Shown: positions 3,518-49,713 of the stretch, in pieces
Layout: the number at the start of each line of letters is the position of its first letter
Numbering within the stretch: the stretch's first letter is position 1
Source: Psammoneis japonica
Lineage: Eukaryota
Assembly: GCA_008632985.1 (NCBI GenBank)
Contig: QPGO01000110.1
Location: 186,001 to 250,000, forward strand
Reading direction: 5' to 3'
Length of the DNA: 64,000 bases
Made by a program: the position numbers and the translations under genes
The notes under the pieces: generated by a model
Database searches by the model: none
Told to the model about the DNA's origin: nothing
The model's input: the letters and a program-made list of their open reading frames with translations, nothing else

Positions 3518-5002
3518 TCATTCTACCTTTGGTACTTTGTTCCGGAGCTTTGGGGCTCCCTTCTGCAACTTTTCTAATTGCTCCTCGAGATAATCTGCAA
3601 TCTGCAAGGCACTTGCTCTCCACTCCGGATCCAACACTAGGGACATGTGCATGGCAGTTTTAAGAGCGACAAACGCCGCGTCGTCATTTCGCTTCAAGTT
3701 ATCCGGCAGCTTTGGAATATCTCCAATCAGGGCATGTCCCAGAGCATCCCTTTCTCCTACTCCCTCGTATCTTTGTCCGTTCGTCAACAGCAAGTAAAAA
3801 ATGTTACCAAGAGCAAAAATATCTACCTTTTCGTCGATCAAATTCCATTCTTCTCGGAATTCTTCCGGAGCACGGAGCTATAAGTTACAATCAAATGACA
3901 ATAGTTAGTGACGAGGAGATACTGAAAGGCACTCTCGAGTTCGGGTTACATTGGAAAGCAGAGGGACCTACCACATGTGCAAGCTCCTTCTTTTTTGATT
4001 TACAGCTCCGATGCCGCTTCTTGTCCCAACCAAGCATAAAGCCTTGGTCCAAGCCACCCAATTGGTATTGTCCGTTCACAAACACGAAGCTCTCTTCGTT
4101 AACATTGTAATGCACGAACGGCGAATATTCCGAGCCACCGAGAGTGTGAACGTCAGCGAGGCCACGTGAAATCTGAGCAGCAGCACGTAATCGTCCTGTT
4201 CGGTCGAGTTTCTTGTAGCTGTCCTTGAGAGACTCTTTCTTTTCTAAAATAGCGGGCTCATGAAATGATGAAAACCCACAGAGACCCTGCACTGTCGTCT
4301 TAACCACGTTCGGCGAGGCTGAAGTTTTCTCTTCAATGATAGTAGCATCGATTTGACGGACCATATCATTTTTCGCAAATGGACTGGTGATCTTATGTGT
4401 CTTTAGAACCCATTCAGTTGTATCTGCCCCCTGTAGAGCATAAATGTTGTGATCGCTATCGCTTGTGAATAGCTTCAGTCGATCCTGTTGCAGCTGTGAA
4501 AAACTCGCTTCATGGACATTGTTACAAACAGGGTAGAATTCTTTCTGCCACACATACATTGGGTCGCATTCATCTTCATACTTTATCTTTTCTTTGATCT
4601 TTGTTCGTTGCTTCTTATCATACAAGTAAAATCTTGTTTTGATCTGAGAGTCTTCTCTGACTAGTTCGATCGTCTCGACATGACCGTCTGGAAAAATTGA
4701 AACAGCAATTGGTTTGCTTTCTGTTCCTGAAGGGGGCGGAATGACTTTACTGACAGCATTTACTACCGCAAGTATGAAGACAAATGTTCCGAGTCTATGG
4801 GACAAGGGCCTGTTCTTCCAAGTCGCAGCACGAGGCGCCTCCCGTCGTGCTTGTAGATTGGCATGGCCGCGGCATTCCTGCGTTCCAGCTGATAGCGACG
4901 TTTGACGCTTCTGCTACTTGTGCCTCTCATTTCACGTACTCGAGAAAGCCCTTCCCAGTCCGTTTCCTCCTCAAACCCCACAAGATGACGAAAAGCCGCC
5001 AT
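3518..5002 (-). CDS. Membrane-anchored protein kinase-like (probable pseudokinase); intron 3878-3971; 5' end uncertain
   Basis: ORFs 3891-4805 and 3518-3841 join via GTAGGT...TAG to give HV|LRAPEE...EKVDIFALGNIFY. Catalytic motifs are degenerate (VHYNV, LGGL). The upstream ATG at 5002 is in another frame (frameshift or unseen intron). Confidence 0.75.
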
Positions 5003-5392
5003 GATGAATGCCACGTAGAACGGAACAGAAGTGTTTCGCCCAATCGATTTGAAAAATTGAAATGCGCACATGTGTTGTTTTTTGATACTCCCACAACACT
5101 ATCTGAGTTTGTGGGTTTCCAATGTTTCATACATATAAAACATTTAAGGCATGCGCAAAACGAACGGCATGTCGGACAGAACACGATGGCCCATTTGTGA
5201 CGAAAACGGAATCTTGCTGATCTTTTTCTAAAACAAGTAGGACCTCATACAAAGCCTATGTGCGTAAAACGCTGTACTATTTTATCGTACAAATCCCAGC
5301 TGTCCGCATTTAGGGCGCCAAACTTTCCCCCCGCAAGAGAGCCTGCCACTAACTAGACCAAGTGCTCGCAAGAGCCGCAACTGCGCCACACC

Positions 5393-5788
5393 TCACTCAT
5401 CACGGTCGCTGTTGCCATCGGACGTCTCGTCTTCAGGTCCATCGCACCCGCGGCAAAATCCGCCTGGGACAGGCCATGAGTCCTTGATGCCGCCCTCAAC
5501 ACACCATGGAAGACGTTTGCGGTTGTTCCAGCCTCGTCCACGATGTCCATTGACAAGAACAGAAGCTCTGCGACAGAGGAGCGCTTTGGCTTCGCGATTC
5601 TCATGGCAGACTACGCGTTTTTCTCCTGTTCCCCGGGTTTCGGCGAACAGCTCGAACTCTTCACGATGAAGCTCCCACAGACAAGGCTCCTGTTTGCAGT
5701 GGCTGCAAATGGTCGCTTCTTTTTCGATCTTGACCTTCTTCAGCAACGGAGGAGAGTTGGAGTGCTCGTCAGATTCGGAGGAAGACAT
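5393..5788 (-). CDS. Small accessory ORF of the Kolobok-like element (CxxC-x3-C motif; RKRLPWCVEGGI), apparently mutated at TA sites
   Basis: Divergent from the transposase inside the TTAA-bounded element; no Tyr; LCRR and GFCRGC are likely Tyr>Cys changes. Confidence 0.55.
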   Translation of the reverse strand: MSSSESDEHSNSPPLLKKVKIEKEATICSHCKQEPCLWELHREEFELFAETRGTGEKRVVCHENREAKALLCRRASVLVNGHRGRGWNNRKRLPWCVEGGIKDSWPVPGGFCRGCDGPEDETSDGNSDRDE

Positions 5789-6167
5789 GTTTGTTGTCTG
5801 CGGCCGTCGACACTTGATTTTTTGTGGGGAAGTGGCCATGTCTCTCAAATGCCATTGGGTGTCCACGGAGAATGCTCAACAATTTCGATTCTCTGCAATT
5901 GCTGTTCCCACAGCACAATTGTTTTCTGTTGACCGTTGGAACTTTCCGTCAGTGCTGACGACAGAGACAGTGGCGATTTGTTGCTCTGCATGGAGATGAG
6001 AACAATGACATTGCAGCAATGTAAAAAACAAGAGTTCCAGTGTTGTGACAATGAAACACATTCACAAATTTTGCCAAGTGTTGGACGTCACTCGTGGACG
6101 TTCATTTTTGAATGCGGGCTGGCGCTCATTCTTTGGACACGACGAATGAGAACGCCATGTCGAGAAA

Positions 6168-8807
6168 ATGGCCCAACGAGCAGACCAGTCTATCCCTCCT
6201 CTGGTCGCCACATGCCGATCCAAGAGAAAATCAGGCGCTGAAAGCTTCACTCCACCGACACGTAAAGAGGTGGAAGCTCTCCCGAAAGGAAAGAAGAAAA
6301 CCGAGTCATTGAAGTTGTCATCCGGAGGCAGCTGTGGCAAGCTCAGCAAGTCGAATGCTGTCGACTCTGATGCGTGGAATTTTCAGCCGAAGAAGCAGAG
6401 GATAACAGCGGAATCTGTATTTGATTATGAAGATAAGGAAAATAGCAGTCCCGCACAAACCGCCATGAACACTACAGCAGTGTCGTCGTCAAGCTCCCAA
6501 ATGGGGGCCTCTGCCGACAATGCACCAAACAGCAGTCCCGCACAAACTGCCTTGAATGCCACTGTTCCAGCATCAACCTCCCCATCTGTCTCCGCCGCTT
6601 CTGCAAAAAAGAAGGAATATGCACGTGCATCCATCGGCTTGGTTCACCTTCCAACCTTAAAAGCACAGATGGAGGCGAATCTTAGATGCGATCAGTGTCG
6701 CTCTCGAGTGGTGCTTACCAGCACGACCATTGGAATTGCATCTGAGATTCAGATACAATGTTCGTCTAAGTCTTGCAGAAAGACAACACTCATCAGCCCC
6801 GCCACGCGCACTACAGAACAAATAAATCCCTCAAGGAATGGGAGGGACAGGCATCTCCTCAACCACCAGCTCATTATTGCTTTCCTAGCGACTGGATCGG
6901 GAGGCCGAGATGCTTCGAAACTCCTTGGACTGCTGGACCTGCCGAACGCAAAGAGCATGGGAAAGAATACCTTTTCGCACATTGAGAAGAAGATAAGTCC
7001 AGTATTGCAAGCAATTGGGGATTCATCTCTAGATTATGCTCTATACAATGAAGTCCGTGCCACTCTGGAAGAAACGCCGCAGGAAGGTGTCAGTTTTGAA
7101 GCGTGGAAATACGCATATGAGAATTGCACACAGCTTGACACTTACCCAAAAATCACCGCTTCTATTGATATGGGCTGGCAAGCTCGTCATAGCGGACGCC
7201 GATACGCCTCTCTCTCTGGACATGCCGCAGTTATAGGTGCGCTGACTCGTAAGCCATGCATCATGACAGTTCTGTGCAAGCAATGTAACATTTGCATGAG
7301 ATACTCAGACGGTGCCTCTCCCACGCATGAGTGCCCTATGAATTACGAAGGTCATTCCAAGTCTATGGAGGCATACGGTGCAGTTTTGTTGTGTGAGAAG
7401 ATACATGCCGAAAAGAAAGTAACGCTGGCTCTAATCGTCGCAGACGACGACTCTACCATGCGAGCTCAGCTCAAATGGCCTATGAAGGACAAGATAGACA
7501 ATGGAGACCTCCAGGAATGGCCTAAGGTACAAAATTCACAAGGCAAAATGGTGAAGGTAAAATGCACAGGAAAATTGAAGCATGGAGTCCCAGAACCTAC
7601 CTTCAACTCGGATCCATCGCATCGCAAACGGATTTTTTCGGATCGCTTGTACGACCTGAAGAGAAAGGGAAAGAAAGTGACGTCGATTACTGATTGTGAT
7701 ATTGTGCGGCTGGTTAAGAATTTTGGATATATGCGAACTCAGCTCCTCGACTTACCTGAAACAGAATGGGAGAATGCGGCCAAAGCCGTTCTAGAGCACC
7801 ACTTCGATAATCATCAGTATTGCGGGACGTGGTGCAAGCGCAAAAATGAAAGCGACGAGGAAAGAGCCAAAACATCCAAGCGGTATCGCAGCAAAGACAT
7901 TGATCCCTACCTGTACAAGCAGTTACAAGACGTGTTAGCAGAGTTCATCAGTTTGGATAGGCTGCGAGATATCGTGCACAAGAACAACACGCAGGCAAAC
8001 GAAGCGCTCAATCAGTTGATTACCTGGTACGCGCCAAAGAACCGGACGTACAGCCGATCTATGTCACTCAACAATCGTATCTCCATGGCTGTTGGTATTA
8101 CAGTTCATGGATGCCATGACTATTTTTGCCAACTGTATGGACAGCTGGGCATTCCTATGCCAGACGGTACGAAAGAATGGTTAGAAACCGTTGACAACGA
8201 CAGAGAGACAAGGCTAGCGAAGCAGAAGCTGGTTGTGAACAAGATCAAGCGGAAAAAGCAGTATTATGAAACACTGAAAAAACACCAAGCTGCATTCGAG
8301 AAGTCCAAGCATGACGGCGACTATGGTAGAGGCATGGGCTTTGCAAAACGTGATGTCGCAGAAGACGCCGACGAAACCAACTCACCCGACGCAACGACGA
8401 CAGCAAAGAAGGCAAGCAAGAAAATAACCAAGGTGTGTAAGTTCTGCCAAGGTACTGGTCACCTTACATGGAGATCAAGCAAGTGTCTGCGTCATGCAGA
8501 GTACCTCAAGTCAAAAGGCGGCGGCCTTGTTGTAAAAGTTGTGGCCATGGACGACATCAACGAGACTGCTGAGGCGTCGCCTGATAATGCGGATGAGTTG
8601 GATGAGTGCGGATACGACGCGATGAGCGAGAAAATCTTGGCACGTGATGACGTCGGCGAAACGAGCAAGAATCAGGAATCCGTCGAAATAGATTTTTCGG
8701 ATTCCGATGAGTGCGATTTGCTCGACAAATTGCCGTTCGAAGCCGACGATGACGATGACACGTTTGAGACGCTCCTAGAAAAAGACTTCGCAATTGGCAC
8801 TTTATAG
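6168..8807 (+). CDS. Intact DDE transposase, 879 aa
   Basis: N-terminal CxxC...C-x4-C zinc ribbon; SIDMGWQAR..Y.SLSGH, CKQCNIC..HEC..NYEGHSKSME, ADDDS, DPSH, EHHFDNH..CG.WC, TQANEALN motifs; C-terminal CxxC-H-C knuckle. Confidence 0.9.
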   Translation: MAQRADQSIPPLVATCRSKRKSGAESFTPPTRKEVEALPKGKKKTESLKLSSGGSCGKLSKSNAVDSDAWNFQPKKQRITAESVFDYEDKENSSPAQTAMNTTAVSSSSSQMGASADNAPNSSPAQTALNATVPASTSPSVSAASAKKKEYARASIGLVHLPTLKAQMEANLRCDQCRSRVVLTSTTIGIASEIQIQCSSKSCRKTTLISPATRTTEQINPSRNGRDRHLLNHQLIIAFLATGSGGRDASKLLGLLDLPNAKSMGKNTFSHIEKKISPVLQAIGDSSLDYALYNEVRATLEETPQEGVSFEAWKYAYENCTQLDTYPKITASIDMGWQARHSGRRYASLSGHAAVIGALTRKPCIMTVLCKQCNICMRYSDGASPTHECPMNYEGHSKSMEAYGAVLLCEKIHAEKKVTLALIVADDDSTMRAQLKWPMKDKIDNGDLQEWPKVQNSQGKMVKVKCTGKLKHGVPEPTFNSDPSHRKRIFSDRLYDLKRKGKKVTSITDCDIVRLVKNFGYMRTQLLDLPETEWENAAKAVLEHHFDNHQYCGTWCKRKNESDEERAKTSKRYRSKDIDPYLYKQLQDVLAEFISLDRLRDIVHKNNTQANEALNQLITWYAPKNRTYSRSMSLNNRISMAVGITVHGCHDYFCQLYGQLGIPMPDGTKEWLETVDNDRETRLAKQKLVVNKIKRKKQYYETLKKHQAAFEKSKHDGDYGRGMGFAKRDVAEDADETNSPDATTTAKKASKKITKVCKFCQGTGHLTWRSSKCLRHAEYLKSKGGGLVVKVVAMDDINETAEASPDNADELDECGYDAMSEKILARDDVGETSKNQESVEIDFSDSDECDLLDKLPFEADDDDDTFETLLEKDFAIGTL

Positions 8808-9823
8808 CGTTATCAATAATACTCGTAAGAACACGAATAGGTAAAGAAAGTCCCCCGGACGAACTCATAATCGTTCGATAGGTCAACGCATAAAATGATG
8901 GTCGGAAAACAGAGCTCGGTATCGGCAGGACGTTTTGCTTTCGAACGGAGGGTGCTGGCGGGGACTTTCATGACTGAATACGTTCTTAAACTTAATAAAA
9001 TAAATGTCTATAAAGACAAAAGACTCTTGAACCCGTCGCTGACATGACAAACTTTACGACAACACACCACCGTCATGTCGCCGATTTTAGCGATGATGCG
9101 TGTAGCGCGCACGAAGTGTCCAGTACAAAAAAAAATCAGAAAGTCAAATCGTCTTGCCATCCATCAGCTCGTTGTGCCATTGCCTTAAAATAGTGTCGTA
9201 CGGTGTGGGTAAATTTTAATTTTTACGAGCTTGAATTTGCACAGGTGCTCGGAGAGGCGGGCGCCACGCATTTACATGGATTTTGCACCAGAAGTCTTGT
9301 TGTTTGGCAGACCAAATGAACCCTTCTGGGACGGGACACACAAGCAGCAGCACAACGTGCTTTTCTTGAGCTGCTGTGTGTCGTTGACAAGTTTTGCATG
9401 GGTTGGAGCTGTGAGCACCCACACACAACAAGCGGAGGCACTGCTGCTTGTTTCTTTTCATGTCATTTGTCAAGCACAGGCAACAAATGAAGCTGGAGCA
9501 GGGCACACGCCAGCAGCTTCCACGCACATCAGAGTGCACGAAATGGCAAAAAAGTGCAGATTTGCGTGATGACAATTCATTGGAACATTGCAAAAAATCA
9601 TTGTCACACGATGACAGGCCAACCTCTGGTTGCAAGTTTGGCACACCAACACTGCAGTGGCTTGTCAAGAATTGTGCGTGCTGTTTTTCACTGTGCCCAC
9701 ATCGCCATTTCTGCCTCCACCTTGTTGCCACATGCCAGTGTGTGATTGCGTTGCCGCACAAACCTTGGTTTGTCAATTTTTGCAAACACCATTTTAAACA
9801 AGAAAAGCATTTCATCGGTCAAG

Positions 9824-11156
9824 TCAATCCCTTGTTGCGTCTGCAGTGCAATGACCGAGTGCTGTGTCAACTGTGTGCACATTTTCTTGCTGCAACTCTC
9901 TCAAACTAAGCTGATGATCATCATTGGACTCGTCTCCATCAGACTCGTCTCCATCGGACTCGCCTCCATCGGACTCGTCTCCTCCATCATTCGTTTTGCC
10001 TTTTGCGCCTTCCTCCTGCTCATCGTCGTTGCCATTGTCGTCCCTGCTGCTCCCCACCATTGGGCTGTTCACTGCCTTCACCTTCTCCACATCACTGGTC
10101 GGTGCTGTCTTCTTCTTCTTTTTTGCTTCTCCGGACTTCTCACACTCACTTTTCTTGATCTCCGCATGCCACTTTTCAAACTCCTTGCCCTCCTTGGAGT
10201 CTCTGTCTTTCGTCACCTCTTTGCACAAATCGTTGAACTGAATGATTCCGTCATCTCCCCAAGACACTCGTTGTTTCTTTGGCTTCGTGCGCCGAGGGGC
10301 AGGCCTTGTTTCTTCGGGCTCCATTTCCTCACCCAATTCTTCCACCGCCTCCTCCTTGTTCCTGCATGCCCACACCTGCTGACATTCTCCATGGCCAATG
10401 GCGCCAAAGCTTCGTCACCTGCCACAAACAACTGTGAGACCTGTGCGTTCCCAGTTTTGACGGCGCTGCTCCATGCCCGCTTTTGCTTGGTTTGAGGCAG
10501 GATGTGATCACAGAACCACTTGCGTGCCTGCTTGTTTCTTCATTTGCCGCCGGCGACAGTGTCTGGGCCAAACGGATCCCATGTCAGCACAAACGTGATG
10601 TCATTCTCTTCATTCTTGTCATGGCTGACTTTTTCCTGCTTTGCTTTTTCCTCCTGACTGCCGCCTTGAGTTTCTTTTCTTTTTCCTTTCCCTCCTCCTC
10701 AGTGACAACGCCCACACAGATGAAGCATCACCGTCATCTTCTTGTGAGACACACGCAACTCTCGAGTCACACACACTGGTCACTTGGCTTGCGGGCCATT
10801 GCCTCCACCCCAATGGCCGAACACACCGTGTTTCTGCAATTGTTGATTTGCCTTTTTACCGCCTTTTTTGCCCATTCCTCCCAAGTTCCTGACCAATTTG
10901 AAGTGTCCATGTTGCCACCAGCAATCTGTTTCTTCACAAACATTGAGACGCTCCCATTGCTTGCCAATTCTGATGGGCTGAGAAACTTCACCTGTGGAAA
11001 GAGATCATTTCCAGCCACCTTCTCCACTTCTGATTTCAATGCACCATGCGCTGCCTGCACACCTGTTGTCTTCAACACTGCCTGAAGTCTTGGGCTCATT
11101 GGCTTGACAGTCTCATTTTTCTTTCTCTTCTTTGCTGGTGGTGCTGGAGACGACAT
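9824..11156 (-). pseudogene. Decayed accessory gene divergent from the Plavaka-like transposase
   Basis: ORF pieces 10767-11156 and 9824-10375 with WGDDGIIQFNDLCKEVTKDR (GWxxxGIxxFNxLxxxVxxDR type); acidic tail. Confidence 0.55.
9927..9987. repeat. 15-bp tandem repeat (gactcgtctccatcg, about 4 copies) encoding DGDES on the minus strand
   Basis: Directly visible. Confidence 0.85.
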
Positions 11157-11608
11157 CTTGATCTTTGCACAGCAACAATGAGAGGAGTGTCACTGTTCGA
11201 CAGTGCAACCGTCGTTTGGGTCGTGTTGAGACAGCCAGCCACTCCATTTTTCTCTGTGACATTGAACAAATTGTTGTCAGCAACATTGAAATTTGAAAAT
11301 GTGTTTGTGTGCAACAATGAACAGTCCAACTCACTTTTTGACATGGCTGTCATTGCATTTCAACGGAGACAATGTCCTGCATTTTGACAGTGAATAAAAA
11401 GCACAACATTCATTGTAAATGCCAGACAACAAATCAAAATGCAGATGCGTCACACCTGTGAGAATCATCCAAATCTGGAAGACAATGCAATGTTTGCCAT
11501 TTTCCCGCCATTTTTTGCGTGTTGTTCTTCTTTTCCCTTGTCATCCACAAGACAAGGGCGACGAGTGTGAGTCTTGATGAAGGCCCTGTCAACATTGTCT
11601 GATCAACA

Positions 11609-14600
11609 ATGGACGGAAACCCTCTTCTCTGTCCCAGGTGTGGCAAAAGTTTTTTGCGAACAGCCTGCCATTGGAGACACTCACCGTGTCACTCAGTTGC
11701 CCAAGAGTTGCAAACCCAAGATCTGATCCCCGATCAAAGCGACATTCCTGCCACAATGGAGGGGCCACCTGAAGAAAGTGGCAGTTCTTCCTCTTTGTCC
11801 TCTGATGATGACGAATCCTGTCCAAGGCGATCTGCTTGCAGCAGATTCCCAAGATCTTCAACGAGTGATCCGAGCAGCAGCCCCTTGTTCCCCTCCCCAG
11901 ATGACGCACCGCACGGAATGGACGACATGTCCTCCATTTCATCCAACCACAGCATGCATGGAGTTGAACTTTCAGCAATGAACGATTTGGATGTTGGCAG
12001 TGGTCAATCCTTTGCTGCAGTGTCAGACGTGACAATGGAGGAGGAAGAGGACATTCACGATGAGGATCAACATTTGGGGATCAGGTGTCACACTCCTGCA
12101 GAAGAGGCCTTGGCTTCTACTCCCTCTTTGACAAATCTTGACGGAGCTTGCGTAGAGTTGTGCAAGAAGCTCATGGACACATGTGGTGCTCCCCTGGAAT
12201 TGTGTGAATGCATTGTTGATTTCATTGAGAGACACACTGGGAACAGCAACACAGAGCTTGGTGCAGTTCTGCCAAGGAGAAAAGAGTTGATGCGCACCTT
12301 AACTGAGCATTTCCCTCTTCCGCCCAGTGAGTCTGTTCCTGTCACTCTAGAAACCAAAAATTTCAAAACCGGTTTGCCAGTGCCAAGATGGGATTTCACA
12401 AAGGTTTGGGAAAAGTTTTTGCTCGATCCTCACCTGTGGTGCAGCAGAGAGAATGTGGCCGATCCAGACAATCCTTTTGGGAAGTGCAAAGCGAAGGGAC
12501 CAGATGACAAGTGCCTTTTGGTGGGTGAGTGGTGCAGGCGCAGTTGCAAAGAACGGACAGCTGTCCCGGAGAAACAATTTCTCGAGTGCAATGTCATTTA
12601 CCTCGACAAGACTGGCAGGACACAAGGGATGGGATCACATTGCAGAGAACCAGTGGTCATGACCTCTGCGCATGTTGCCTTCAACAAATGGTCAGACAAG
12701 AGTGTCTGGAAACCAACCGGTTGTCTCCCTGATTTGGAAAAGATGTCATCATCTGTGGCAAAGAATCTCTCAAACAATCACAAGGTGGAGAAGGGACGCT
12801 CGTCAAGAGACCACCACACTTGCTTGCGTGTCATTTTGGAGCCACTTTTGGAAGTCATGAGAAAAGGAGGCATGAAAACATGTGTGTGACAAGGGGATGA
12901 GATGCGACACCTCCACGCAATCCCACTGATCGTTCTGATCACAGGAGATGCAAAAAGCGGCGACTGTCTCGTCGGACGATGCGGTCACAACTGTCGTCAA
13001 CGTTGCTGTCATTTTTGCCTCACTGGCTTCAACAAACTGGACGACCCATGGATTGAATGCAAGTTTGTCCAAGGACTGGATCTCCAACAAGTGCAAACTG
13101 AGGCCAACGACGACAACAGATCAGACCAAGAAAGGAAGCACTGGTTGGGCATCTTGCATCACCTCAAGCAACACAACGCACCTGCCAAGTGTCTTTTTGA
13201 GGCAGACTTTGGCACACAACCACATGGCATTGCCCTTGCGACAGCAAGCAACATGATGCATCTCTTTGAAAATGGCACCTTGAAAAGGGTGGTCAATTCA
13301 TTTGTAGACAGCATGACACCTGTGGTCGCAAGTGAGGTGGACAGCACAGTGGAAAGGATTTTCAGCAATCACCGGTCAACTTGCAAAGCATCCTTTTTGC
13401 GAACAAACTTCAAAGGAGGAGCAACGTCACTTGCCTTCCTCAACTCTCACCACTGGGCTGGAATGGCTTTTTTTTTCTGCCTTCTCCTGTTGACCAGCGA
13501 GGGACGAAATGCATGTGAGTCACGCTTCCTTGACGAGGACGCAGACGAACCCATTCTTCCAGAGAATCGCAAGACACCCAAAGCAAACTTTGAGAGTTGT
13601 TGCCAACCCAGTGAGCACTTGGACTCTGACTGTGAAAGGTCAGAGGAGTCTGAAGAGGGTGACTGGGACGAAAATGGTGCAGGCCAGGCGATCCACCCAT
13701 CACAAGCGCAACTCCCAGTTCATCTGTTCAGAAAACAAACAAGAAAATCCGTCTCCTCATTGCCTGGACAGTGCAATTCGTCCCGCGAACAGAAGGATGC
13801 AGGTGGAAGCTTCAAAAGCTTCATGAAACACTCCATCTCCCAGTGTTTCTTCATTGTTGCCGACATGCGATGAACTTTGACGCAGGCTTGGGGGAATGTC
13901 TCTTGAAAGACTTTTTCAAGCTGCCATCATCCACCGCACAACAACGCAACCTCGATGGTTTTCTGAAGCAGGTCGTGTCGCGTGTGGAGGACCAAATGAG
14001 GCTCAACGCTGCAATTTCAGCTGACAGTTGGATTTTGCCAACTGGGAAAAAGGAATCATCAAGAGTCAGGATGGACAATCACACGCTGGGAGGAAGTGCG
14101 TTCACTCTCACCTGCAACCGAGGGATCGGCGCTGTGACGTTTGAGTGGAACAGCTTGCATGCTCGTTGCCAAGTTCACCCTGTGTTGCCAAACTTCATGT
14201 CGGAAAAGTGGGAGGATTGTGTTGGTGAAGACAATGAAAACACACATCTGACTTGTGAGACAGAGTTTTGCAATGCAAGCGGGAGGGATGCACACCGTGC
14301 GCGCCCCAATTGCAAAAGCAAAGGCCCATGGCATGACTTTGCGCATGTCACCTTTTGCACACAAAAGGGCGATCAACAGTTTCCCTCCCATTTGCTGTGT
14401 TTCTTCAAACAGGAAGACACAGGATCAATTTTTGCAGTGGTCCATCCAACTGCTTGTCAAGCTGACCAGAGAACTGTGAGGCAATGGCATCAGCACACAG
14501 ACTTGGTTGGTTGCTGGCAGCTTGATCACAAACAAAACAGCTGGCTTTCAATGCCTGAGAAGACTCAGTGCTCACCCAAGTTGCGGGTTGTCCCTGTCAA

Positions 14601-14730
14601 AGCAATTGGGGACAATGTTTTGGTTTGTGAAGAATGTCCAGGAGTGGCAGAAGCACAAGAAAAGGCCCCATTTGTTTGGGCTGCACAGGACAGAAGGAAG
14701 TGTTGGTCAGATTTGTTTCTAAAATGGGAT
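11609..14730 (+). pseudogene. Plavaka/CACTA-like transposase pseudogene
   Basis: N-terminal C2H2-like finger (CPRCGKSF); IYLDKT, EPVVMT, GDAKSGD, MHLFENG, KLHETLH and HRARPNC..GPWHD (YRAHPNY..GPWYD-like) motifs; in-frame TGA at 12887 (probable CGA>TGA) and a frameshift near 13.75 kb. Confidence 0.8.
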
Positions 14731-14745
14731 GCGCGCATCAATCTG

Positions 14746-17090
14746 TCATTCACTCACAGTGATTTCCCAAATCTTTCTTGCAAACATGATGAGTTTGATC
14801 CTTTCAGAATTGGCAAAGTCATTGTGGTGCACGTGAAGCAGCGCGGTGCGAGCACCTTCCATTGCTTTTGTTCTGATGTCTTCTTTGGAAACTCCAAGAT
14901 GAGCTTCTTCCTGATTGGAAGGCTTTCCCAACCACCACTCTCGTTGTTTTGCAAAGAATGCACTCGCACGGCTCTTTGCAGCATCGTTGTCCATTGTGCA
15001 CATGTCGAACACAGCCGATGATTTCTTCCATTGTTTGACAACCTGGAAGAAGGTTGCAAGAGCAAAGGGAATCACCATGTCCCCCCCTTCTTCGTTTTTG
15101 GAGAGCAAGGCCCAAAGATCAATTAGATTCTGGAAAAATTGAGTCGTCCCAAAACGACTGTCGTGCCACTCTCCATCTGGCATCCAGCAGCAGTCCAACA
15201 TGATTTGGTCAAACCCATGATTGTCGAAATCAACAAGTTTCTCAAACTGCTGCTTGACTCTCTTGACGAAATCTCTTGCTTTCACATTGCAACCCAAGTG
15301 CAGATCAGGATGGCTGTCTTGGAGAGAAACTGTTGGAACGACGTTTGTGATTGTTTTGTCAGTTTCCTCAAATGCCATTGCGCGGGCCTTGTCTCGCCTG
15401 TGTTGGTCGGACGACACTGAGGCCACCCCCTTCTCAGAGCACAATCATTGAGAAGACAGTTGCCTTGCATTGAGCGGACGGGTCATCCCCAACCACAGCA
15501 CATTGTGTGTTTCCCCGTCAGTTTCGTCACTTGCGAAACAATCTCCTAAGTTGCTGTGGTCCTCTTCACCGATGTGTTTTCATCCCAGGTGAGAAACGCG
15601 CATGCGGAGGTGAGACGTTTCGTCTGTCCCTTTTCCGTCGCCGTGCTTTTTGTGCGAGCAAATCTGACTGGACTTTCCCCTGATTTTTCGTTTCTTCTTT
15701 CCACAGACATGTTTATTTTGAAAAGCCAGCCGTTGTTCTCATTGGTTGAAGGGTGCGCACAAGAAAAGTGCTGTCTCGAAAGCGGCATTTTTTGGAGTGA
15801 AACTGACAGCTGTCTGCTCGTTGTTGTTGTTCTGGTGCATTTGAGAGACCATTCTGCTGTTTCTTTCACCGAATCTGACTGCTTTGAAAGAATGTACGCA
15901 TTGTTCATTGTACAAAGAGCTCATGCCAAAAAAGAACGGCGTTCTAACTCTGTTGTTTACATGAGAAAAATCGGGGGAACTGACTTCGCACGTGATTTTT
16001 TTGCGCGATCGGCCATTTCAAAGATCGACTGATTTGTCGACCTGTGTGGGACACTTGAGTGAATAAAACAAGGGGATTGAAACAGCAGCGTCAAAGTTCA
16101 ATGTGTGTCCAGTCATCATGTGATTTGACATGCCTGGGTGGAGTTAAAGATGAAACATTGACAAAATTTCACCGCTCAAAATGACTGGTTCTATCTTAGA
16201 ATAAAATAAAATGGCTGCAACACTGGGATGTCGCCAATGGCATTGTTCTGCTTTACAGTGATGAAACTGTCACACTTGCATCTGAGATTCTTTGTCCTTG
16301 CACACCCTCAAAACCGAACACACAACGATTCTCTTGTCGGTGGCGAAATCTGATGTTGTCGCGTGACCCAAAAGCGTCGTCCACAACGACTCAAAGTGCG
16401 GACGATGCATTGTAAGAATCACAGCAACGTGTCATAGAAACATTCTTCGTTGTCAGCATCCGGTGTCAAGTGGATGGAGCAGCGCGTTGACGAGAATCCC
16501 ACTTCGCAAGCTGAGGAAGAGAGAAAGAGGCATCAAAAATGTCATGAGTCAAAAGGCTGTCCATGAGGCACAACAAAAAACAAAGATCAAATTTTCAACC
16601 ACACCATCGCACTGAGCGTTGTCTTGTTGACCTGTCTCGGCATTCTTGCCTTCTCAGTCACAACATCTGTTGGTGCAAGAATGGACGAGTTCATGGCGAC
16701 AGCATGGTGCCATTTTCGGTTTGCGCGAATTGTGGTTTGTGGTTCGAGACATGGAAAAACATGTTTTTGCTGTCATGGAGCTCGTTTTTTACTAAGATTT
16801 TTGGTGCCAAATGTACGTCTCATGTAGAAACACGTAGAAAACCTCGTGATGTGTCCAAAAGTTTCTCACCTGGGATGAAAACACATCCACCCTCGGAGCA
16901 ATGTGCAACTTGGTTGTGCTCATCGTCAACAGGCTCTTTGCTTTTGTCCTCTTCACCCACACAAGCAGTTGGAAGTTTGCTTGTTTTCTCATCAATTGAC
17001 TCCTCCTCGCAATCGTCACTTTGGTTCATTGCGAATGACAACAAATCACCCCGGCGGCCTTCTTCCTGTTAGAACGAGAATTCAATGTGA
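14746..17090 (-). pseudogene. Decayed cargo gene (VLWLGM...RDKAR...FDQIMLDCCWMP), split by a 1.3-kb TIR element
   Basis: Removing 15571-16887 plus one TSD joins ORF 16820-17044 in frame to ORF 14746-15444, with one internal TGA. Confidence 0.6.
15571..16887. mobile_element. Non-autonomous TIR element, 27-bp perfect TIRs, 4-bp TSD CACC (possibly Sola-like)
   Basis: gatgtgttttcatcccaggtgagaaac at 15571-15597 and its reverse complement at 16861-16887; CACC at 15567-15570 and 16888-16891. Confidence 0.9.
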
Positions 17091-17104
17091 CAATGTCAGC
17101 ACAA

Positions 17105-19470
17105 TCAGACAAAAAACAAATGTGATTGCCATGAAAAAGTGACCTCTCTTTGCCGTTCCAGTTCAGCTCGAACTTCATCAATCGGCATGAATGGGGCTGG
17201 CTCCCACTCATGCCTTCCAAACCGCTTGATCATTGATTGCCCATCAGAGAACAAGAGCAACAGATGCTGCCCGCAACAAAAGACATCGCAGATTCCCATC
17301 TTTTCATGAGCTGCACTCAGGTCACACAGCAAAGACTCTGGGCCATTCTTTCCACAGTCTTCCAAATCAAAATCACCCTCCATCCGTTCCAAGAGTAAAC
17401 CGCGCTCCTCCACCGGGACCTTCATTTCCTCCATTTGCTTTGCCGCTCCCAACTTGGCCACCGGATGGACAAGATTGCGAAGGTCAGGGTGAGGATGGAT
17501 CCCCATGCCACACAGCATCAACATCTGCACAGAGTTCATGCATCTGAACTCTCCACAATCAGCACCTGCATGATCCCATGTTTGGGCCACGGTTTTAAAC
17601 ATGTCCTCGATTGCCTTGTGGTCAAACGTTGGCTTGCCAACATTGTCATTGATCCAGTCAATGATGACAACCAGTCCGCCAACAAGCAAGTCCATCAAAC
17701 CGTCAAGTTTCGTCCCGCACTCTGCCACATGAACCTCCTTGAAATCGAGTCCCAGGCTCTGCATGTGTCGGTTGTTGCGATCCCCCACAATGCTGCCGAA
17801 TGGCCTCGCAGCTTCTCTGAAGCAATGAAGGACATGATCGCCAGCCACGAAAGGACGCTTCACAGCATCTGTGTTGCACAACAAGCAGCAAAAATGGGAG
17901 AATCTGGTTTGACACCCAGCCACAACGGCACAATGAAAGCAATCGTGTGCACCAACCTCATCGAGGTTGTCGATGATTGCCGAACAACCGCACGAGAAAT
18001 TAAAGTCCTTCACGATGGCAAACGGAAGACGTTTCCTCGGCATGACAATGACGGGATGCTCAACTGTGTCAGATGGAAGATTTGGCTTGCCAATTTCCTC
18101 TTCCACCCACACAGAGTGAGGGTCAAGGAAAAAATCTTTGATGTTTCTGTGGGTCAGCTTGCCAGATGGAGGACGACAAGGGCCACGGTGTCTCATCATT
18201 TCTGCAGCATGTGACAGATCAAGTTTTGCGAAATGACCATGCACACGCGATCGGAACTCGGCATGCCCATGTGCCAAACTGGCACAGTTTCTAGCATTGC
18301 CTTTTGATGCAGTGATGACCTTCAATGGCCAAGAGCAACCAACAGCGTCTCGCAGTGACGAGCAAAGAGCACCAGTCTTGGTGCACCCATCCATGTCACA
18401 ATCCTCTTTGTCAATGTGCAGCTCGGTTTTTGAATCAACGGATTTTTTGCCGGACGACGAGATGCACTTCACTTGAATTTCCATGCCTTCCCTTCTAATG
18501 TGCTTGGCTCCAACCATCTTACGGAGCTCAGCCGCGAAAAGACTGTCACAGCACAGGTCATGGAAGGAACGCATTTCTTTCAAAGCAACAAGATCAATTT
18601 CATCCTCGCAGAGTTGTGTGGCGTCCAAGATTGAGGCCATCATCACCTGCACATCCTTTGGAAGCTTCTCCCACTTGTCCCTGCCAAAGACAGCACCAGG
18701 CTTGTGAGTGGGTCCCACTTCAGCTAACTCACCATCTGCGACTTCGTAATTCTGGCCACAACAACCAAAACAGATCCGACAGCGCAACTTGCATTCTGGT
18801 CCATCCCTTTTTTTGTTCGGCTCGCCATGTTCCAACACTGCACGGAGTGTCGACGACACACTGAACCACAATCCAAAAAAGCATTTCTGATGCATCTTGT
18901 CCGTGTGTCGCAAACAAGTGACCACGTCGGAAAAATGAGAGGTTGACTGGGTTGGGCAAGTGATCGCAACCATCAATTCTTGCGTCGGATCATTGGGAGC
19001 TGCGCCGTTTTCAAATCCATGCACAAACTTGCGGAGGTGATTCACCAAGTGGAAATCAGAGATGCTGTGGAACAACTGGTGCTTGACACAGTTCCCTCAA
19101 AGGCACCTGAAATTTTGGTTTCCTCAAAGATGACAAGGTGAGAATGTTGTGGCTTCACCTCACCCGGAATCGCAAACAGAGATGGTTCAGGAAAAACTTT
19201 CACAAGCTCTTCTTTTGTGAAATTGTCTGGTGGAGGAGGAGGTGACTGACAAGTCACACCGAGGGTCAGCCACTTTGTTCAGGAACGTTCAAATTGTTCC
19301 TTGAGAGTCGGCACATCTTGGAGAATCAGCGATTTGTTCTGAGAAACATCAGAAGGTTCGCCATCTTTGGGGTTTTTGAGACTGGGGCTTGAGGAACAAA
19401 GGGAGGCGGCTAAAGAAGTGGCAAGAAGAATGGAAGAATCAGAGGTGAGAAGAGGAGCATGAACAATCAA
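17105..19470 (-). pseudogene. Decayed large cargo gene of unknown function (656-aa open segment)
   Basis: ORF 17105-19075 reads like a globular protein but has a single Tyr; upstream pieces 19042-19470 probably belong to it. Confidence 0.6.
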
Positions 19471-20600
19471 TCAAACAATGTGATGCATTCACACCATTTA
19501 GATTTTTTTGTTTCCGAGCATTTTTCATAACGGATGGAATTGCATTGCCGATTTCTTTCTTCTTGCACTGAGTGGCAAAGTCATGAAGCCTGGCTTTCCA
19601 CATGGCCTCAAAACGATCCCTTGCAGCCTTGCTTTTGCTGGAATCATCAGCGGCAGAAACCACACAATCAATTTTCACACATCTTAAAAGAGTCTCATCG
19701 ACATGTGTTGCACGCATTTGTTCTCGCTTGACATCGAGCATCGCCAGTCGCGTGGGCTTTTCCCAAGAATTTTTGTGTTGGCGGAACAACAACTTTACAA
19801 ACTCAGGGAAGGACATGGGGCATTTGTCTTTGGTCGTCTCACAGCAACCAAGAGCCAAGAAATTCTCCAAAAAGTTGATGTGAGTTGATGTCTCGTCACA
19901 TTCGCCAAACAGGGAGTGCAGCCAACAATCGCAATCACCATTCCTTTCAGGTGTGCATGGTGGAATCTTGTCACGTAGAATCAAAAAACCAATGTGAAGG
20001 CATTGTGCATGACGCAAAACCTTCCCTTCAAAACTTCTCAGCTTGGTGTGCTTGACAAGTGGCTCTCCCTTTGGGTCGCACAATCCGGGATCATGGAGAA
20101 GCTTGTGCAACATGGAAATCTTTGCCATCATGTTGGTTGCAATGTCTGTTGATTTTGCCTTGTCGCCAACAACTTTCATGTCCTCTGCTTTGGGAGCACG
20201 GTGATGCTCCAACGCATGAGGATGTCTGGCGCCTTGACTGGAACAACTCCATCCTTTTGTGGAAAGAAAGTGCAGCAAGATCTTGCACCCAAGTTCCTTT
20301 GCAACAGTGCGGTTCACAGCCATCAGTTCTGCAAAAAATGAGGTCTGCCCTTTGACTTTTGCCACACATGGGCAAGCGCGATCCAATTCAGAGAGGGGTC
20401 ACAAGTGGAGTCGTGGTGAAACTGAACCTTGGATTTCACCGTCTCGATTGTCGCTTTGACATGGCTCCGCTCGTTGCTGTCGATCACTCCAAAACCATTG
20501 GCAAAGAGAGATTCAAATGCGGCCTCCTTGAGGCAGGAACCATTGTTGTCTTGTGACAGAGAGGCGACCGACAGGTCACGCGGCACCATGGTTGCTGTTC
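19439..20600 (-). pseudogene. Decayed cargo ORF, unknown function
   Basis: 315-aa Tyr-free ORF 19439-20386 co-oriented with the neighbouring cargo ORFs; 5' limit approximate. Confidence 0.4.
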
Positions 20601-21399
20601 CAATGCCAAAACATCTGGTTTCTACAGAAACACACCAGAGTGGTGTGTGGGAGAAGTTGCATGCACGCCTGGCATGATTTGGAGTTTTAAACACAAAAAC
20701 CTGCCAGACGCGCATGTGACTTCTCCCAAGGAAACCCTGCGTGAGATTGTGCCGGGAAAGGGCAGTGCGGAGTGTAGAACTGATGAAAGAAAATGTTGTG
20801 CAAAACAGCATCAGGAAAAAGGGTGCATGTGCTGGAAAACAACATGGATTTCTGCATGCACGTTAAGGTGCGTGAAAAACACATGGGTGTCTTCAAGTGA
20901 CGCGTGCGAACAATCACAAAGAAACACTCGGAAATGGAGATGGCGTGGAGAGAAGTCAGAAACATGGATCCAAAACAAAGTGATGCACAACAGAAAAAAA
21001 AACAACAACAACAAGAGATGAAGGCGACGGCAATGGGATCAATGAAAAAGAAGGATTCGGATGGAAAGATGCCGGAGACGGTGAAAACAGGCAGTGCCAA
21101 GACGAGGAAGGAAGAGAAAAATGGGGCGGGCAAAATGAAGAAAGAGAAAAAGAAGCCGACGACACGACATCAAGAGGGGAGCAGCAATGCAATTCAGCGT
21201 TTTGAGGGACCTCTTCCTCTTGATGATGTTCACCCAAATGCAAGAAATGCAGTGTGGCTTTTTTGGAATGGTGACGAGGAAACATCCAATGCGGCAGCGG
21301 CACATTTGAAATTCTTGCAAGAGAGCGGACAAGACATGTGGAATGAAGAGGATGATGCGGACGACTGGGCAAATTGGAGCACAGTTGTTGATTGAACAA

Positions 21400-24215
21400 T
21401 CAGCGCACACTTCGCATGATGAAAATTTCATTGCATGTGATTGCAATGTTTGGCTTGTCATTAAAGATCGCCAGTTGTTGTGAAAAAGGCAGAGCACAAA
21501 AATTAAAAAACACCTGTGTTCAAACATGAAGAGCAGCAGGAGATTGACAATCAACTGAACAACAAAACCGTCATGTGCAGATGAGCAGATTTTATGATGT
21601 GGCGACATGTTTTTGTCATGTGTGCAGATGTTACGACATCGTGCACTCTGATGCAGAGACAAAAAGCAGTTGCCAATGGGCAGCTGAAGGAGGCTCAGCA
21701 GCTGGCCAGTCAACTGCAGCCAGCCTGACACATGCAAAAGAGATGGCGGGAGCACTGGGCAACTGAGAGAAAATGTGAGCAGCGCCTGCAACACACACAC
21801 TTGTCCAACTTTCTTGTCACCGTGTGTGTGTCCATGTTCCAACTCTGATGCTGTGGTTGGATGACATGGGGCTTTTCCCTTCTGGGATGCCAACAATCTG
21901 GGTGTTGTCCCCGCAGCCAAGATTTTCTTTTTTCCTCAAATTTGTCTGGCAAGATGCCACTGCCTTGAAAATTTGGCAACTGCAAAAATGTTTGTGGTTG
22001 ACAAGCTCCAATCTTTCAGGGAGCAAATGCCCTCTTTCATGGGTGAAAATGTGCCACAATTTGTGCTTGCTCTGCTTTCTGAGTGTTGCTTGCCTTGTTC
22101 CCCCCTGCCTCAATGTTTGTGGCTGAACATCTGGCTGCATTTTGTTCCACTCAAAAATTTTGTGTTTTGCATCACTTCAGTCTCACCAACTCTTCTCTGT
22201 TGGACTTTTGTTGGTGTTGGGCTGCTGCCATCAATTGTCCCTCCCTTTGTTTTTGCCATTGCCTTGACATTGTTTTTGTTGTCTTTGTTTTTTTTTTGCC
22301 AGCTGTCATGTTTCTCCATGTTTGCCATGCCACACTCACAGAAAATTGCACTTTGTTGGCAAATTTTGCAAATGATGCACACACAGCTCACAATTCTCTC
22401 CCATGCATTGCAGGCTGCTTCTTTTGCAGATGACACTGTCACTCCCCATGTGTGACCTTGTGTGGCCTGCATGCCACCCTGTTGTCAACATCTCCACTGA
22501 GGTGACAGATTGGAGTGAAAATGCTGGTTTGCCATTTGCTGAGCCAACAAACGCATCATCCAAAGATTGAGCCACATCACACACATGCCTTGCAGGACTG
22601 CAACTTCTCTGAACAAGTGGTGAGCTGCCTTCCTGCGACTTTGGCTGATTGACTTGTTCCTGCAGATCTGCAAGTTTGCCAGTTGTTGGCTGCCCATGTG
22701 CCACAAGCTGTGCTTGGCAACCAGGCTTCAGCCATCGTTGGCTGGGTGGTCGTGGTTGCTGGCACTGCTCATGATCCACATCTGCCATGCACAAGTTGCT
22801 CCACTTGAACAGACAGGCTGTGGCCAAAAGCTGATTGCTGGCTCAACCACCAAGTTTTCCATCACCACCCTTCTTGCATTTCAACCAAGGATGGCAGAAC
22901 GTTTTGGCCAAATCAAAGCTTTTTTCTCAAACCTGCAGCAGAAGGAAGCATGCTTGTGTTGCAGCCACAACTGGTGTCAGATGAAATCTTTCATGACCCT
23001 CTTGACAATCCCAAGAAAAATGAGATGCGTTGGGACGTCCAAGAAAATGAACATAGAAACGCCAATCTTGCATGTCACCAAGAAGCTCAAACACTGCTTT
23101 GACCATGGACCCTGTCTTGTGATGGCAGAGCTGATGAGGATTGACCAGATTGGACAGCTGAGCGTGTTCTTTTTAAAAAGATCCCATGTTGGCCGATGAT
23201 TGTTTTTTTGTCGCTGAGGAAAAGAGAAACAAGCTGTCATCTGTCTGCAACCTTGTGTGAATGGGGGGCTCTGGCATGCATGGGATGCAAGATTCAGCTG
23301 TTTGAAGGGGTTGGTGTCATCATCCCATGCAAAAAAAATGGGGAGCATCAGCCTGTTTGGGAAGGTGCTGCTGGATTGTGCAGATTTCACAATCTGACAC
23401 ACATGCTCAGTCTGACAGATGGAAAAGAGACAGGGCTGTTGGGAGATTTGTCCACAGGAACAAGCAGCTCCATTTCATGTGGAAGTCCAAGGACATGTGG
23501 CACGGCACTGTTTGAAAGAGAGAGCAGCAGCGGGCATGCCCGTGCAGCTCAACTCCAGTGTGTGTTGGCAGATTCTTGGGGCACATGGCACGCATTTTCC
23601 ATCCAGGGTGAATGAACGAGCATTGTTGATGATGTTGGTGCAGGCGGGTCACATGAAAACAGTGGTGTCCATGTTGGGTGGGTTCACAGTGCCAGAGACA
23701 AAACTGGACAGCAAGCTCACATGAGACAAAGGAAGCGTCTTCACTGGCATGGACAGTTTCATCATCTGGGTGGCAATGTGGGGATGACAGCAGACCATGC
23801 TGGTGAGCTTTGCTTTTGACAAATTGCCTTGGCCACCAAATGCTCTGCTTCATGGCCCAAGTTTGCACCGGGAAGGTGAGAGCGGGCATTGCGAATGATG
23901 AAAGAGAGGTGCGTTGCATCGTCGGTGCACAGGGGACAAATTGGGGCAGCACCTGTCATCACAAGTTTGGGAGGAACAAGCCAGGATGAGAAAAATTCAT
24001 TGCAGGTGTGGGGGAATTTGGCTGACCTTCGTCCAGACAAGACAAGGGTTGCTGGTGGGCTGTGGGGGAACAAGTGTGGGGAAATTTGCTGGTGGTGGTG
24101 GGGGNNNNNNNNNNNGGGGGGGGCAACAAAATTGCAGGTGCGTTCCATTGCTGGTAAAAAACCAGAAATGGATGCGACCAGCAATGTCACAGGAAGGCAG
24201 GTGCGTGCCAGTGAT
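21400..24215. repeat. Heavily decayed repeat block, TpA- and CpG-depleted
   Basis: Composition only; normal TA content resumes at about 24215. Confidence 0.6.
24105..24115. other. Assembly gap (11 N) inside a poly-G tract
   Basis: N run flanked by G runs. Confidence 0.99.
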
Positions 24216-48220: not shown

Positions 48221-49713
48221 CCTGCCAAGACTGAAGAATCTACGATGGATGAGCTTCACTTTCATGGGAATCCTTTTGCCAAGACCATTGCGCGCACAAT
48301 GAAGGGACCGTTTGCTGATCCGACATTTGGACTCTCCTTGGCTACGGACGATCTCCATCGGCGCGTGTTTGTTTCTGACATTGAGCGTGGTTCTCCTGCT
48401 GCACGTCTTTTCTCTTCTTTGAAGGCCACCCGCAACAAGATCAAGGGTGCGCATGTCGCATCGATTGATGATCATCCTGTCTTCATGACAGAGGAGGCTG
48501 TCAAATGTTTTCAACAAGTCCATGATTCAGGCAAGACTCACTTTGAAATCGACTTTGCGCCGGAACGTCAACTGGACTCCCAGGCTCTACAACGTGCCCT
48601 GATGGAACATGACATCCATGCACCAACTCCTGACCCTGATGATGAACATGTCCCGGAAATTGCCGCTGCTGACACACGCACCATTGCTGCCATCCGTCAC
48701 CCTGACAATGATTTTTCTGATGTGGACGATGATGACGTCCCTCCGCCGATCCACGTCGACTGCGACAATGGTGTGGTCAACACATGTGCTGTTTCATCTC
48801 ACGCGATTGCTCTGGAGGAACAAGCGTCAGGTGCTTTCACTCACCATCCTCTCAAGAAGTTGGACACCTGGCCCGAATGGCATGCGGGTGAATTCAAACA
48901 ACTTGACCAATTTCATGAGTTGGGGATGTTTGGTGCACTGATTAAACGTCCGAAGGATGCCACAGTCCTTTGTCCACATTGGCAACATGATCTCAAGCAT
49001 GATGGTGCGCGATGATCTTGACAATGCTGCAATGGATCTCCACGTGCTGCGTCGATCCTCCACCGTCTTCATTTGACCTGCTCCTCTTGTGTGGAACAAC
49101 CCATCCAACGCATGTTTTTTGCCCTTGCTGCAACCATGAGCTGCCCTGCACATGGTGGCGATGCTCGGGATGCATGTTCACACTCTCCGCGACCATCACA
49201 CCCTGTCTGTGTTGCCATTGACGAAGCATGCGCGACTTGGTGCAAGGCTCGGTTTGGTGTTGATTTGGATGGGACCGTGGTGCTTCCAGTGCAACACGCC
49301 CTTCAGGGACACCCAGAAGCTGGCGTGCTCTGGGAGACGCACATCAACAGCATTTTGTCCGATGTGAATCTACTTTTTCGCAATGCTGCTCATGACAAAT
49401 GCATCCATTCTGCTGCTTTTGAGGGACACAAGATCTTGCTCCTCCGTCAGGTTGATGACTTCTCCCTTGCGTGTCCTGAAGAGTCCCTTGCGATCAAGAC
49501 ATGTGACAAGATTGGCAAAGCTCTTCAATTGGAATCGGAAACTTCCCCGCCTTTCAAGCATCTTGGCATGATTGAAGAGTTCAATGGTGTGGACATTCAT
49601 CAACACATGATGATTCCATTGGTGTTGCTGTTCACAGCTGTGTTGATCGGGTTTGTACCTCGCATGGATGGTCGACACCGACAGACGAAGAACTCGACGA
49701 TGACTGCAAGGCT

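Follow-up and report, generated by a model that had tools for sequence, protein, structure and literature searches.

A sub-kilobase TpA-depleted patch with retained CpG in an otherwise intact Kolobok-like transposon of Psammoneis japonica

Hypermutation restricted to the TpA dinucleotide has been described in Bigelowiella natans, where integrated giant-virus and virophage DNA is changed only from TpA to TpG or CpA, on both strands, leaving a depletion of TpA together with a gain of CpA and TpG (Mettrop et al., bioRxiv 10.64898/2026.01.13.699255). That preprint also reports an enrichment of DDE endonuclease and reverse transcriptase domains in the low-TpA coding sequences of B. natans. The mutations there were observed as new events in mutation-accumulation lines, in regions of 186 kb and 25 kb where TpA still makes up 3.3% of dinucleotides. 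Here we describe a TpA-depleted patch inside a transposon of Psammoneis japonica. The transposon lies in a stretch of 64,000 nucleotides (positions 186,001 to 250,000 of the forward strand of contig QPGO01000110.1, assembly GCA_008632985.1), which we call the window and to which all coordinates refer, and it appears to be a Kolobok element of the Kol0 type. The two cases appear to share the TpA signature and share its occurrence in mobile or foreign DNA, and the accompanying gain of CA and TG is present in the intergenic half of the patch and not in its accessory gene alone. They differ in that erasure here is near complete (2.5 TA/kb), occupies a patch of less than 1 kb within a single transposon, occurs in a different host, and is read here from sequence. 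A literature search found no TpA erasure described in diatoms or in transposons apart from the Mettrop preprint, whose tables S6-S11 lay outside the search. The locus extends a process otherwise known from one 2026 preprint to a further lineage and to a finer scale.

Two other processes invite comparison. Repeat-induced point mutation (RIP) of ascomycete fungi (PMC2621366) likewise disables mobile DNA through transitions at a particular dinucleotide and leaves domains of skewed dinucleotide content. RIP converts CpA and TpG to TpA, requires a duplicated sequence and creates stop codons. In the window the direction is the opposite, from TpA to CpA or TpG, and no stop codons are made. The second process, the CpG decay of methylated transposons, gives an excess of TpG and CpA and cannot remove TpA.

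According to Kojima and Bao 2022 (PMC9587614), Kolobok transposons are characterized by TTAA target-site duplications, 5'-RR...YY-3' termini and a DDD/E transposase with a C/DxxH signature, and have a signature motif in common with MuDR; Kol0, the original Kolobok lineage, encodes a transposase and a second protein, KolX, that has a P2X7 ballast fold. The same survey records Kol0 in diverse animals and lists a single diatom, Fragilariopsis cylindrus, with Kolobok. The element in the window is like Kol0 elements in its TTAA duplications, its RR...YY ends and a second protein with a P2X7 ballast-like match, and differs in that its KolX copy lacks both conserved tyrosines. Its main parts are as follows.

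5148..9184, + strand: putative Kolobok (Kol0-type) DNA transposon of 4037 bp, delimited by TTAA on both sides, GG...CC ends and read contigs
5148..5354, no strand: left terminus with normal TA (12 TA, all in 5229-5354)
5355..6190, no strand: core of the TA-erased patch, 2 TA in 836 bp with normal CpG (TA counts, hidden Markov model, permutation)
6191..6402, no strand: indistinct right margin, where the patch fades out over about the first 78 transposase codons (2 TA in 212 bp)
5393..5839, - strand: putative accessory gene KolX, encoding a P2X7 ballast-like protein of 148 aa that has no tyrosine (open reading frame; 32 relatives)
5840..6167, no strand: intergenic DNA separating KolX from the divergently oriented transposase gene, 1 TA
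6168..8807, + strand: transposase open reading frame, intact, 879 aa (PF20700, E = 4.3e-41, residues 168-437; 34 related loci)
8725..9184, no strand: right end, multi-copy in reads and TA-normal here (21 TA in 8808-9184, 377 bp)

Within 5401-6190 (790 bp) TA occurs twice, at 5612 and 6022, where base composition predicts 46.9 occurrences (observed-to-expected ratio, o/e, 0.04), and CG occurs 49 times (o/e 0.95). The nearest TAs on either side are at 5354 and 6191, so that the span holding no more than two TA measures 836 bp, and a two-state hidden Markov model (HMM) on TA density extends the depleted state to 5355-6402 (1048 bp, 4 TA, CpG o/e 0.92). The left border is sharp, with the 12 TA of the left terminus followed by 257 bp without any. 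Of 132 TA in the whole element, 2 fall in the 836-bp core and 130 in the other 3201 bp (40.6/kb), a distribution with a binomial P of 3.1e-11, and when the 132 TAs were placed at random 20,000 times, such a long span with two or fewer never arose (p = 5e-5). Elsewhere in the element TA stands at about the level of host genes (38.7-40.8/kb), namely at 40.5/kb in the transposase core (o/e 0.62), 49/kb in the left terminus and 55.7/kb in the right terminus. Both the count of two TA amid abundant CG and the normal TA of the transposase reading frame and the termini agree with the original prediction made from this DNA. The patch spans KolX, the intergenic DNA and the beginning of the transposase gene, and its left edge lies less than 40 bp from the KolX stop codon. 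Open reading frames (ORFs) of at least 83 aa from an ATG are present in five of its frames, as expected because TAA and TAG have been lost.

What was removed from the patch is indicated by the tyrosines of KolX. A search of a representative protein library returned 32 relatives (best E = 1.7e-9), and 31 of these carry 2-15 tyrosines over the full protein. We aligned the window ORF with 30 relatives, excluding P0004 (8 matched stretches) and P0013 (2 stretches); PF20478 (P2RX7_C, the P2X7 intracellular domain) is matched by 13 of the 31 members and the alignment profile matches the P2X7 structure 9e3q_A (E = 1.3e-5), the window ORF by itself matching no Pfam family. The aligned core contains 0 tyrosines here versus a mean of 4.1 (range 0-8) in the 30 relatives. 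Three codons are of particular relevance.

5573..5575, - strand: KolX codon 89, TGT (Cys), a tyrosine in 27 of 30 relatives
5453..5455, - strand: KolX codon 129, TGC (Cys), a tyrosine in 23 of 30 relatives
5543..5545, - strand: KolX codon 99, which reads CAT (His) in this copy but TGT (Cys) in three other read contigs (5544 T>C, 5545 G>A)

Codons 89 and 129 occupy the two most conserved tyrosine columns of the alignment, both of which are tyrosine in P2X7 as well, and TGT and TGC at these codons are what an A to G change makes of TAY. Residue 132 is likewise TGC here, where the relatives have Phe (14), Tyr (8) or His (8). At codon 99, CAT and TGT are the two one-step products of TAT, and this split argues for independent conversion in separate KolX copies. 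By the genetic code, conversion of TpA to TpG or CpA cannot make a stop from a sense codon, and the open frame of KolX is therefore no sign of function. This constitutes a hazard for annotation, as heavily TpA-mutated genes stay open and are called intact; ORFs that are free of tyrosine and rich in Cys and His are the warning sign. Among the 32 relatives, P0023 is the sole one without tyrosine; it has 11 Cys and 8 His, with Cys at both conserved tyrosine columns, and is probably another erased KolX copy. A THAP-like domain on the + strand, hinted at by the 'AVPT' string of ORF 5670-5999, is rejected, as none of seven frames and ORFs in or overlapping the patch had a Pfam match at E <=10.

The non-coding half of the patch carries the second trace. 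In the 328 bp between the two genes, a shared promoter as presumed from gene orientation, CA has an o/e of 1.65 and TG of 1.64, and together they reach 204/kb versus 146-150/kb in normal DNA, a gain that balances the loss of about 50 TA/kb. Because Cys stands for Tyr at conserved KolX columns and the intergenic gain of CA and TG matches the loss of TA, it is supported that the patch formerly contained TA and that its TA poverty is mutational for at least part of its length.

Assignment of the element to Kolobok, Kol0 type, with the accessory ORF as KolX, is supported by its sequence features, since it has TTAA duplications, RR...YY ends (GG at 5148-5149, CC at 9183-9184), transposase relatives with TTAA-flanked inverted repeats, and KolX with its P2X7-ballast match. 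These bear out its earlier description as Kolobok-like. The boundaries are as follows.

5144..5147, no strand: left TTAA target-site duplication (sequence; partner at 9185-9188)
5148..5163, + strand: left terminal inverted repeat GGCATGCGCAAAACGA (inverted pair of 21 nt including TTAA, 81% complementary)
9169..9184, - strand: right terminal inverted repeat, of the same inverted pair
9185..9188, no strand: right TTAA target-site duplication (sequence)

Flanks beside both TTAA sites are TA-normal. The Pfam family matched by the transposase, PF20700, is named 'Mutator-like transposase'. Mutator-like elements (MULEs) duplicate about 9-10 bp of their target and end in long terminal inverted repeats. 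A MULE identity, suggested by the Pfam name, is ruled out, as there are no long inverted repeats and the duplication is a 4-bp TTAA. Also ruled out is a transposon that starts near 6100 with the patch as old flank, given the TTAA and GG...CC at 5148 and 9184 and a read contig that joins 5234 to 9128. A search for homologous proteins found none for KolX and none for the transposase, for which low-complexity N-terminal words may have swamped candidates.

TA-poorness itself is common in the window. Over its whole length TA has an o/e of 0.26 and CA and TG each of about 1.5, and the HMM places 63.5% of it in seven TA-depleted domains of 2.5-5.1 TA/kb. The host-gene segments between these domains have 38.9-44.1 TA/kb and a CpG o/e of 0.93-1.06, so that depletion is confined to mobile or foreign DNA and neighbouring host genes are spared. 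The patch is singular in its small size, being the smallest of the seven domains, in its site within an intact element, and in its kept CpG, with an o/e of 0.92 versus 0.23, 0.53, 0.47, 0.62, 0.42 and 0.26 in the six other depleted domains. CpG decay is accordingly at work in the older erased domains (0.23-0.62) and not in the patch, and the element offers an early snapshot of TpA erasure in an otherwise intact transposon. One of the older domains, 9274-24154, starts only 90 bp past the element's unaffected right end, whereas 3 kb separate it from the patch at the opposite end. Within that domain, 15500-17000 has intermediate TA (0-6 per 250 bp) and may be another partly converted or younger segment.

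Further evidence on the mutational process comes from relatives of the element. A scan of metagenome contigs gave 34 loci that encode a core related to that of the transposase, 30 having 32-45% identity to it, and in four of six loci inspected TTAA-flanked inverted repeats bound elements of 3.27-3.43 kb. The distance from the left end to the transposase core domain is 533-582 bp in these relatives versus 1512 bp here. KolX had no tblastn match in the 34 loci, and neither 5050-6660 nor the right end showed similarity to them, so that the relatives provide no site-by-site ancestor. They do provide pairs that can be compared with each other. Loci L025 and L029 are 90.7% identical over 1891 columns, and of their 166 substitutions 97 are TA in L025 and TG (49) or CA (48) in L029, with 0 in the reverse direction. 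The two have 108 versus 6 TA and 61 versus 68 CG, and since L029 has lost 102 of 108 TA with CG at 68 versus 61, near-total TA erasure can come before any CpG loss. In the microbial-mat metagenome, L029 (872-4269) and L030 (444-3841) show this near-total erasure with sharp edges and TA-normal flanks, L025 being unaffected; between L029 and L030, both already erased, 0 of 8 substitutions are TA-type. Strand-coherent runs of TG-type versus CA-type changes were not found in L029 (53 runs versus 49.5 expected, p = 0.79), and there is no sign of long single-strand processive events.

Closer pairs reveal how such changes are distributed. Loci L013 and L014 are 98.8% identical over 3180 bp, and 32 of their 39 substitutions are TA-type, in both directions. 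These changes alternate between the two copies in four copy-specific runs (permutation p = 1e-5). Three of the runs, with lengths of 171, 526 and 1035 bp, are partly converted (6 of 10, 10 of 14 and 14 of 32 TA). TA-type changes also account for 15 of 37 substitutions between L023 and L024, and for 7 of 14 between L003 and L006, where 13 of the 14 differences are inside the element. The changes from TpA to TpG or CpA that the B. natans preprint describes are seen in these relatives, in 97 of 166 cases for L025/L029 and 32 of 39 for L013/L014. The same process seems from these sequences to be active in at least one other eukaryote, and there to be copy-specific and clustered. The original prediction had held that TA was lost by mutation, that its conversion is uncoupled from and faster than CpG decay, and that it acts in sub-kilobase tracts. 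The first of these is upheld by the Cys-for-Tyr replacements, the absence of tyrosine and the intergenic CA and TG gain, the second by the CpG o/e of the patch and the CG counts of L029 and L025, and the third by the copy-specific runs of L013 and L014.

Copy number and ongoing change were assessed with the read contigs of one sample (X1), placed at >=80% identity; contig counts are a rough guide to copy number. Searches of the 64-kb window with blastn, with the sequence collapsed to purines and pyrimidines, and with tblastn using the transposase and KolX relatives as queries gave no second copy, and no second full-length copy was seen in the X1 reads. The full-length element is effectively single-copy in X1, with one contig each over 5742-6212 and 6527-6840. 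The KolX core (5428-5741) is covered by 4-5 contigs. At the right end the summed word depth over 8725-9195 is 1225-2483 versus about 53 in the flank, with one variant in up to 39 contigs, and by 9196 the depth is back at the single-copy value of the flank (53). In one contig 5234 is joined to 9128 with both ends kept, as would be expected of a deletion derivative. The comparison between window and contigs covers 40 of 324 differing places. Ten of the 40 are TA in the window and TG or CA in a contig, all outside the patch (8122-9192), and two are TG in the window and TA in a contig, both within the patch (5545 and 6053). Six others are CpG in the window versus TpG or CpA, four the reverse, five other transitions and 13 transversions. 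A contig over 5386-5666 shows 0 differences from the window; the contig over 5684-6254, the only one there, bridges the erased intergenic DNA into the transposase ORF and shows two, one of them the TA at 6053. The right-flank contig has TG at 9192 where the window has TA. TA/TG differences thus make up 2 of 4 in near-identical contigs, small counts that fit conversion still ongoing at the locus. Many right-end copies have TG or CA where the window has TA, at 8806, 8812, 8821, 8920, 8980, 8996 and 9056.

The reading we favour, which we hold to be about evenly poised between right and wrong, is that the patch is the product of TpA-specific A:T-to-G:C mutation, made in place after insertion in some 0.84-1.05 kb of an otherwise unaffected Kolobok. 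A mutator converting TpA to TpG or CpA, the same that erased 63.5% of the window, would have struck KolX, the intergenic region and the first transposase codons. The enzyme might be an adenine deaminase-like activity acting at T-A steps on either strand, by analogy with what is proposed for B. natans. The strike would have come in place, following insertion at this TTAA site, and the KolX frame would have stayed open while its conserved tyrosines went. It would have been aimed locally, at either a transcription unit or a patch of chromatin, with the target determined neither by copy number nor by spread from the adjacent erased domain. Copy number does not appear to be the trigger because the multi-copy right end keeps its 21 TA while the single-contig 5742-6212 is erased, at odds with a duplication trigger like that of RIP. 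Simple spreading is unlikely because the erased domain at 9274 lies 90 bp from the untouched right end and the patch is 3 kb away. The locus thereby adds a constraint beyond those from fully erased domains, in that one hit of less than 1 kb can saturate with the rest of the element untouched, and it constrains targeting to a process without dependence on copy number, without spread from an erased domain 90 bp away, and both ahead of and apart from CpG decay. More tentatively, and as less likely than not, we suggest that the mutator may be aimed at the transcription unit or promoter of a still-active transposon and not at repeats as such, that it may work in sub-kilobase, fast-saturating quanta, and that this element may have caught a eukaryotic DNA-editing defence at its initial targeting step, with recognition directed locally, through RNA or chromatin, and not dependent on cytosine methylation.

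Several points weigh against the favoured reading. Both codons found at KolX position 99, CAT and TGT, can also be derived from CGT via CpG deamination on either strand; in that column Tyr and His are the commonest residues (6 of 30 each) and Arg is outside the top five. The KolX ORF has CA+TG at 150/kb and a TG o/e of 1.03, which is no gain, at a GC content of 55%, and its scarcity of TA may partly be intrinsic to GC-rich coding sequence of this kind. An ancestor of the patch is lacking, so that individual conversions within it are not countable. The remaining sites of the other KolX copies fall outside the 40 differences compared, and X1 is possibly the source data of the assembly itself, in which case its contigs are not independent support. 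The terminal inverted repeats are weak, with 12 of 16 positions in agreement. Furthermore, the patch is saturated, with about 2 of 34 expected TA left, and its left boundary is abrupt; saturation next to unaffected DNA would sooner suggest the margin of an old domain or a junction made by recombination.

This last point bears on timing. The same mutator may have acted earlier, as the original prediction allowed with its alternative of a donor already hit, making the patch at a prior location or in a donor lineage from which the element then transposed here with a damaged KolX, and we regard such an order of events as a real possibility, if on the unlikely side. A very recent hit in place is disfavoured because the patch is saturated and sharply edged, the remainder of the element being wholly unaffected, whereas the private clusters of L013 and L014 are partial. 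KolX may moreover be dispensable for movement, as the 3.27-3.43 kb Kolobok relatives among the 34 loci lack it, and the near-identical contig over 5684-6254 is also erased, bar one site. That one site, however, is a TA/TG difference inside the patch between window and contig, which implies that conversion continued after the two split, and the near-identical L013 and L014 do gain private clusters. In addition, a second copy with the same patch was not seen, 5742-6212 and 6527-6840 being single-contig.

Improbable in our judgement is a recombinant origin, in which ectopic gene conversion or recombination with an erased KolX paralogue pasted a TA-free segment into an unhit element. Conversion tracts are typically sub-kilobase and sharp-edged, as is the patch, and the 4-5 contigs over 5428-5741 point to KolX paralogues as possible donors. 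Over 5742-6212, the half with the clearest signature, there is however a single contig and no donor seen at >=80% identity. The three paralogue contigs with TGT at codon 99, where the window has CAT, are not donors at that site, and the intact CpG of the patch means that a donor would itself have to be freshly hit.

An assembly chimera of erased and unerased copies, or base-calling errors at a modified base in T-A context, is hardly credible: the contigs listed do leave the left edge unbridged (record 1 stops at 5192 and record 3 begins at 5386) and may come from the assembly's own data, but the independently built contigs over 5386-5666 and 5684-6254 agree with the window, the latter bridging into the transposase ORF, and the same signature is present in metagenome contigs of other assemblies. 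Native TA poverty of KolX and promoter in this family, without mutation, is close to refuted and very improbable, for although KolX is GC-rich without CA+TG excess and TA is low in the element's acidic coding stretches as well (8501-8750 has 5), 31 of 32 relatives have 2-15 tyrosines versus none here, Cys stands at two near-invariant tyrosines, the non-coding 328 bp is equally TA-free with a matching CA+TG gain, and five patch frames hold long ORFs as in DNA stripped of TAA and TAG.

Some minor observations concern the transposase gene and the surroundings of the element. A second set of contigs (X2, their kind guessed as DNA) covers only 6998-8724 and has seven joints at which the skipped parts begin with CT and end with AC, that is, GT..AG on the minus strand; these have the appearance of spliced transcripts antisense to the transposase gene. 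At 4800-5122, the start of a kinase-like neighbour gene, a second contig is about 85% identical (33 mismatches, 17 gap positions); its similarity ends 26 bp short of the transposon, and it represents a paralogue or else a divergent allele that lacks the element. Finally, an element of about 400 bp at 49711-50112, with 27-nt inverted ends (89% complementary), is unaffected inside an erased domain and has very high TA (82/kb over 49729-50093), and it looks like an element that was inserted after erasure or that escapes erasure.

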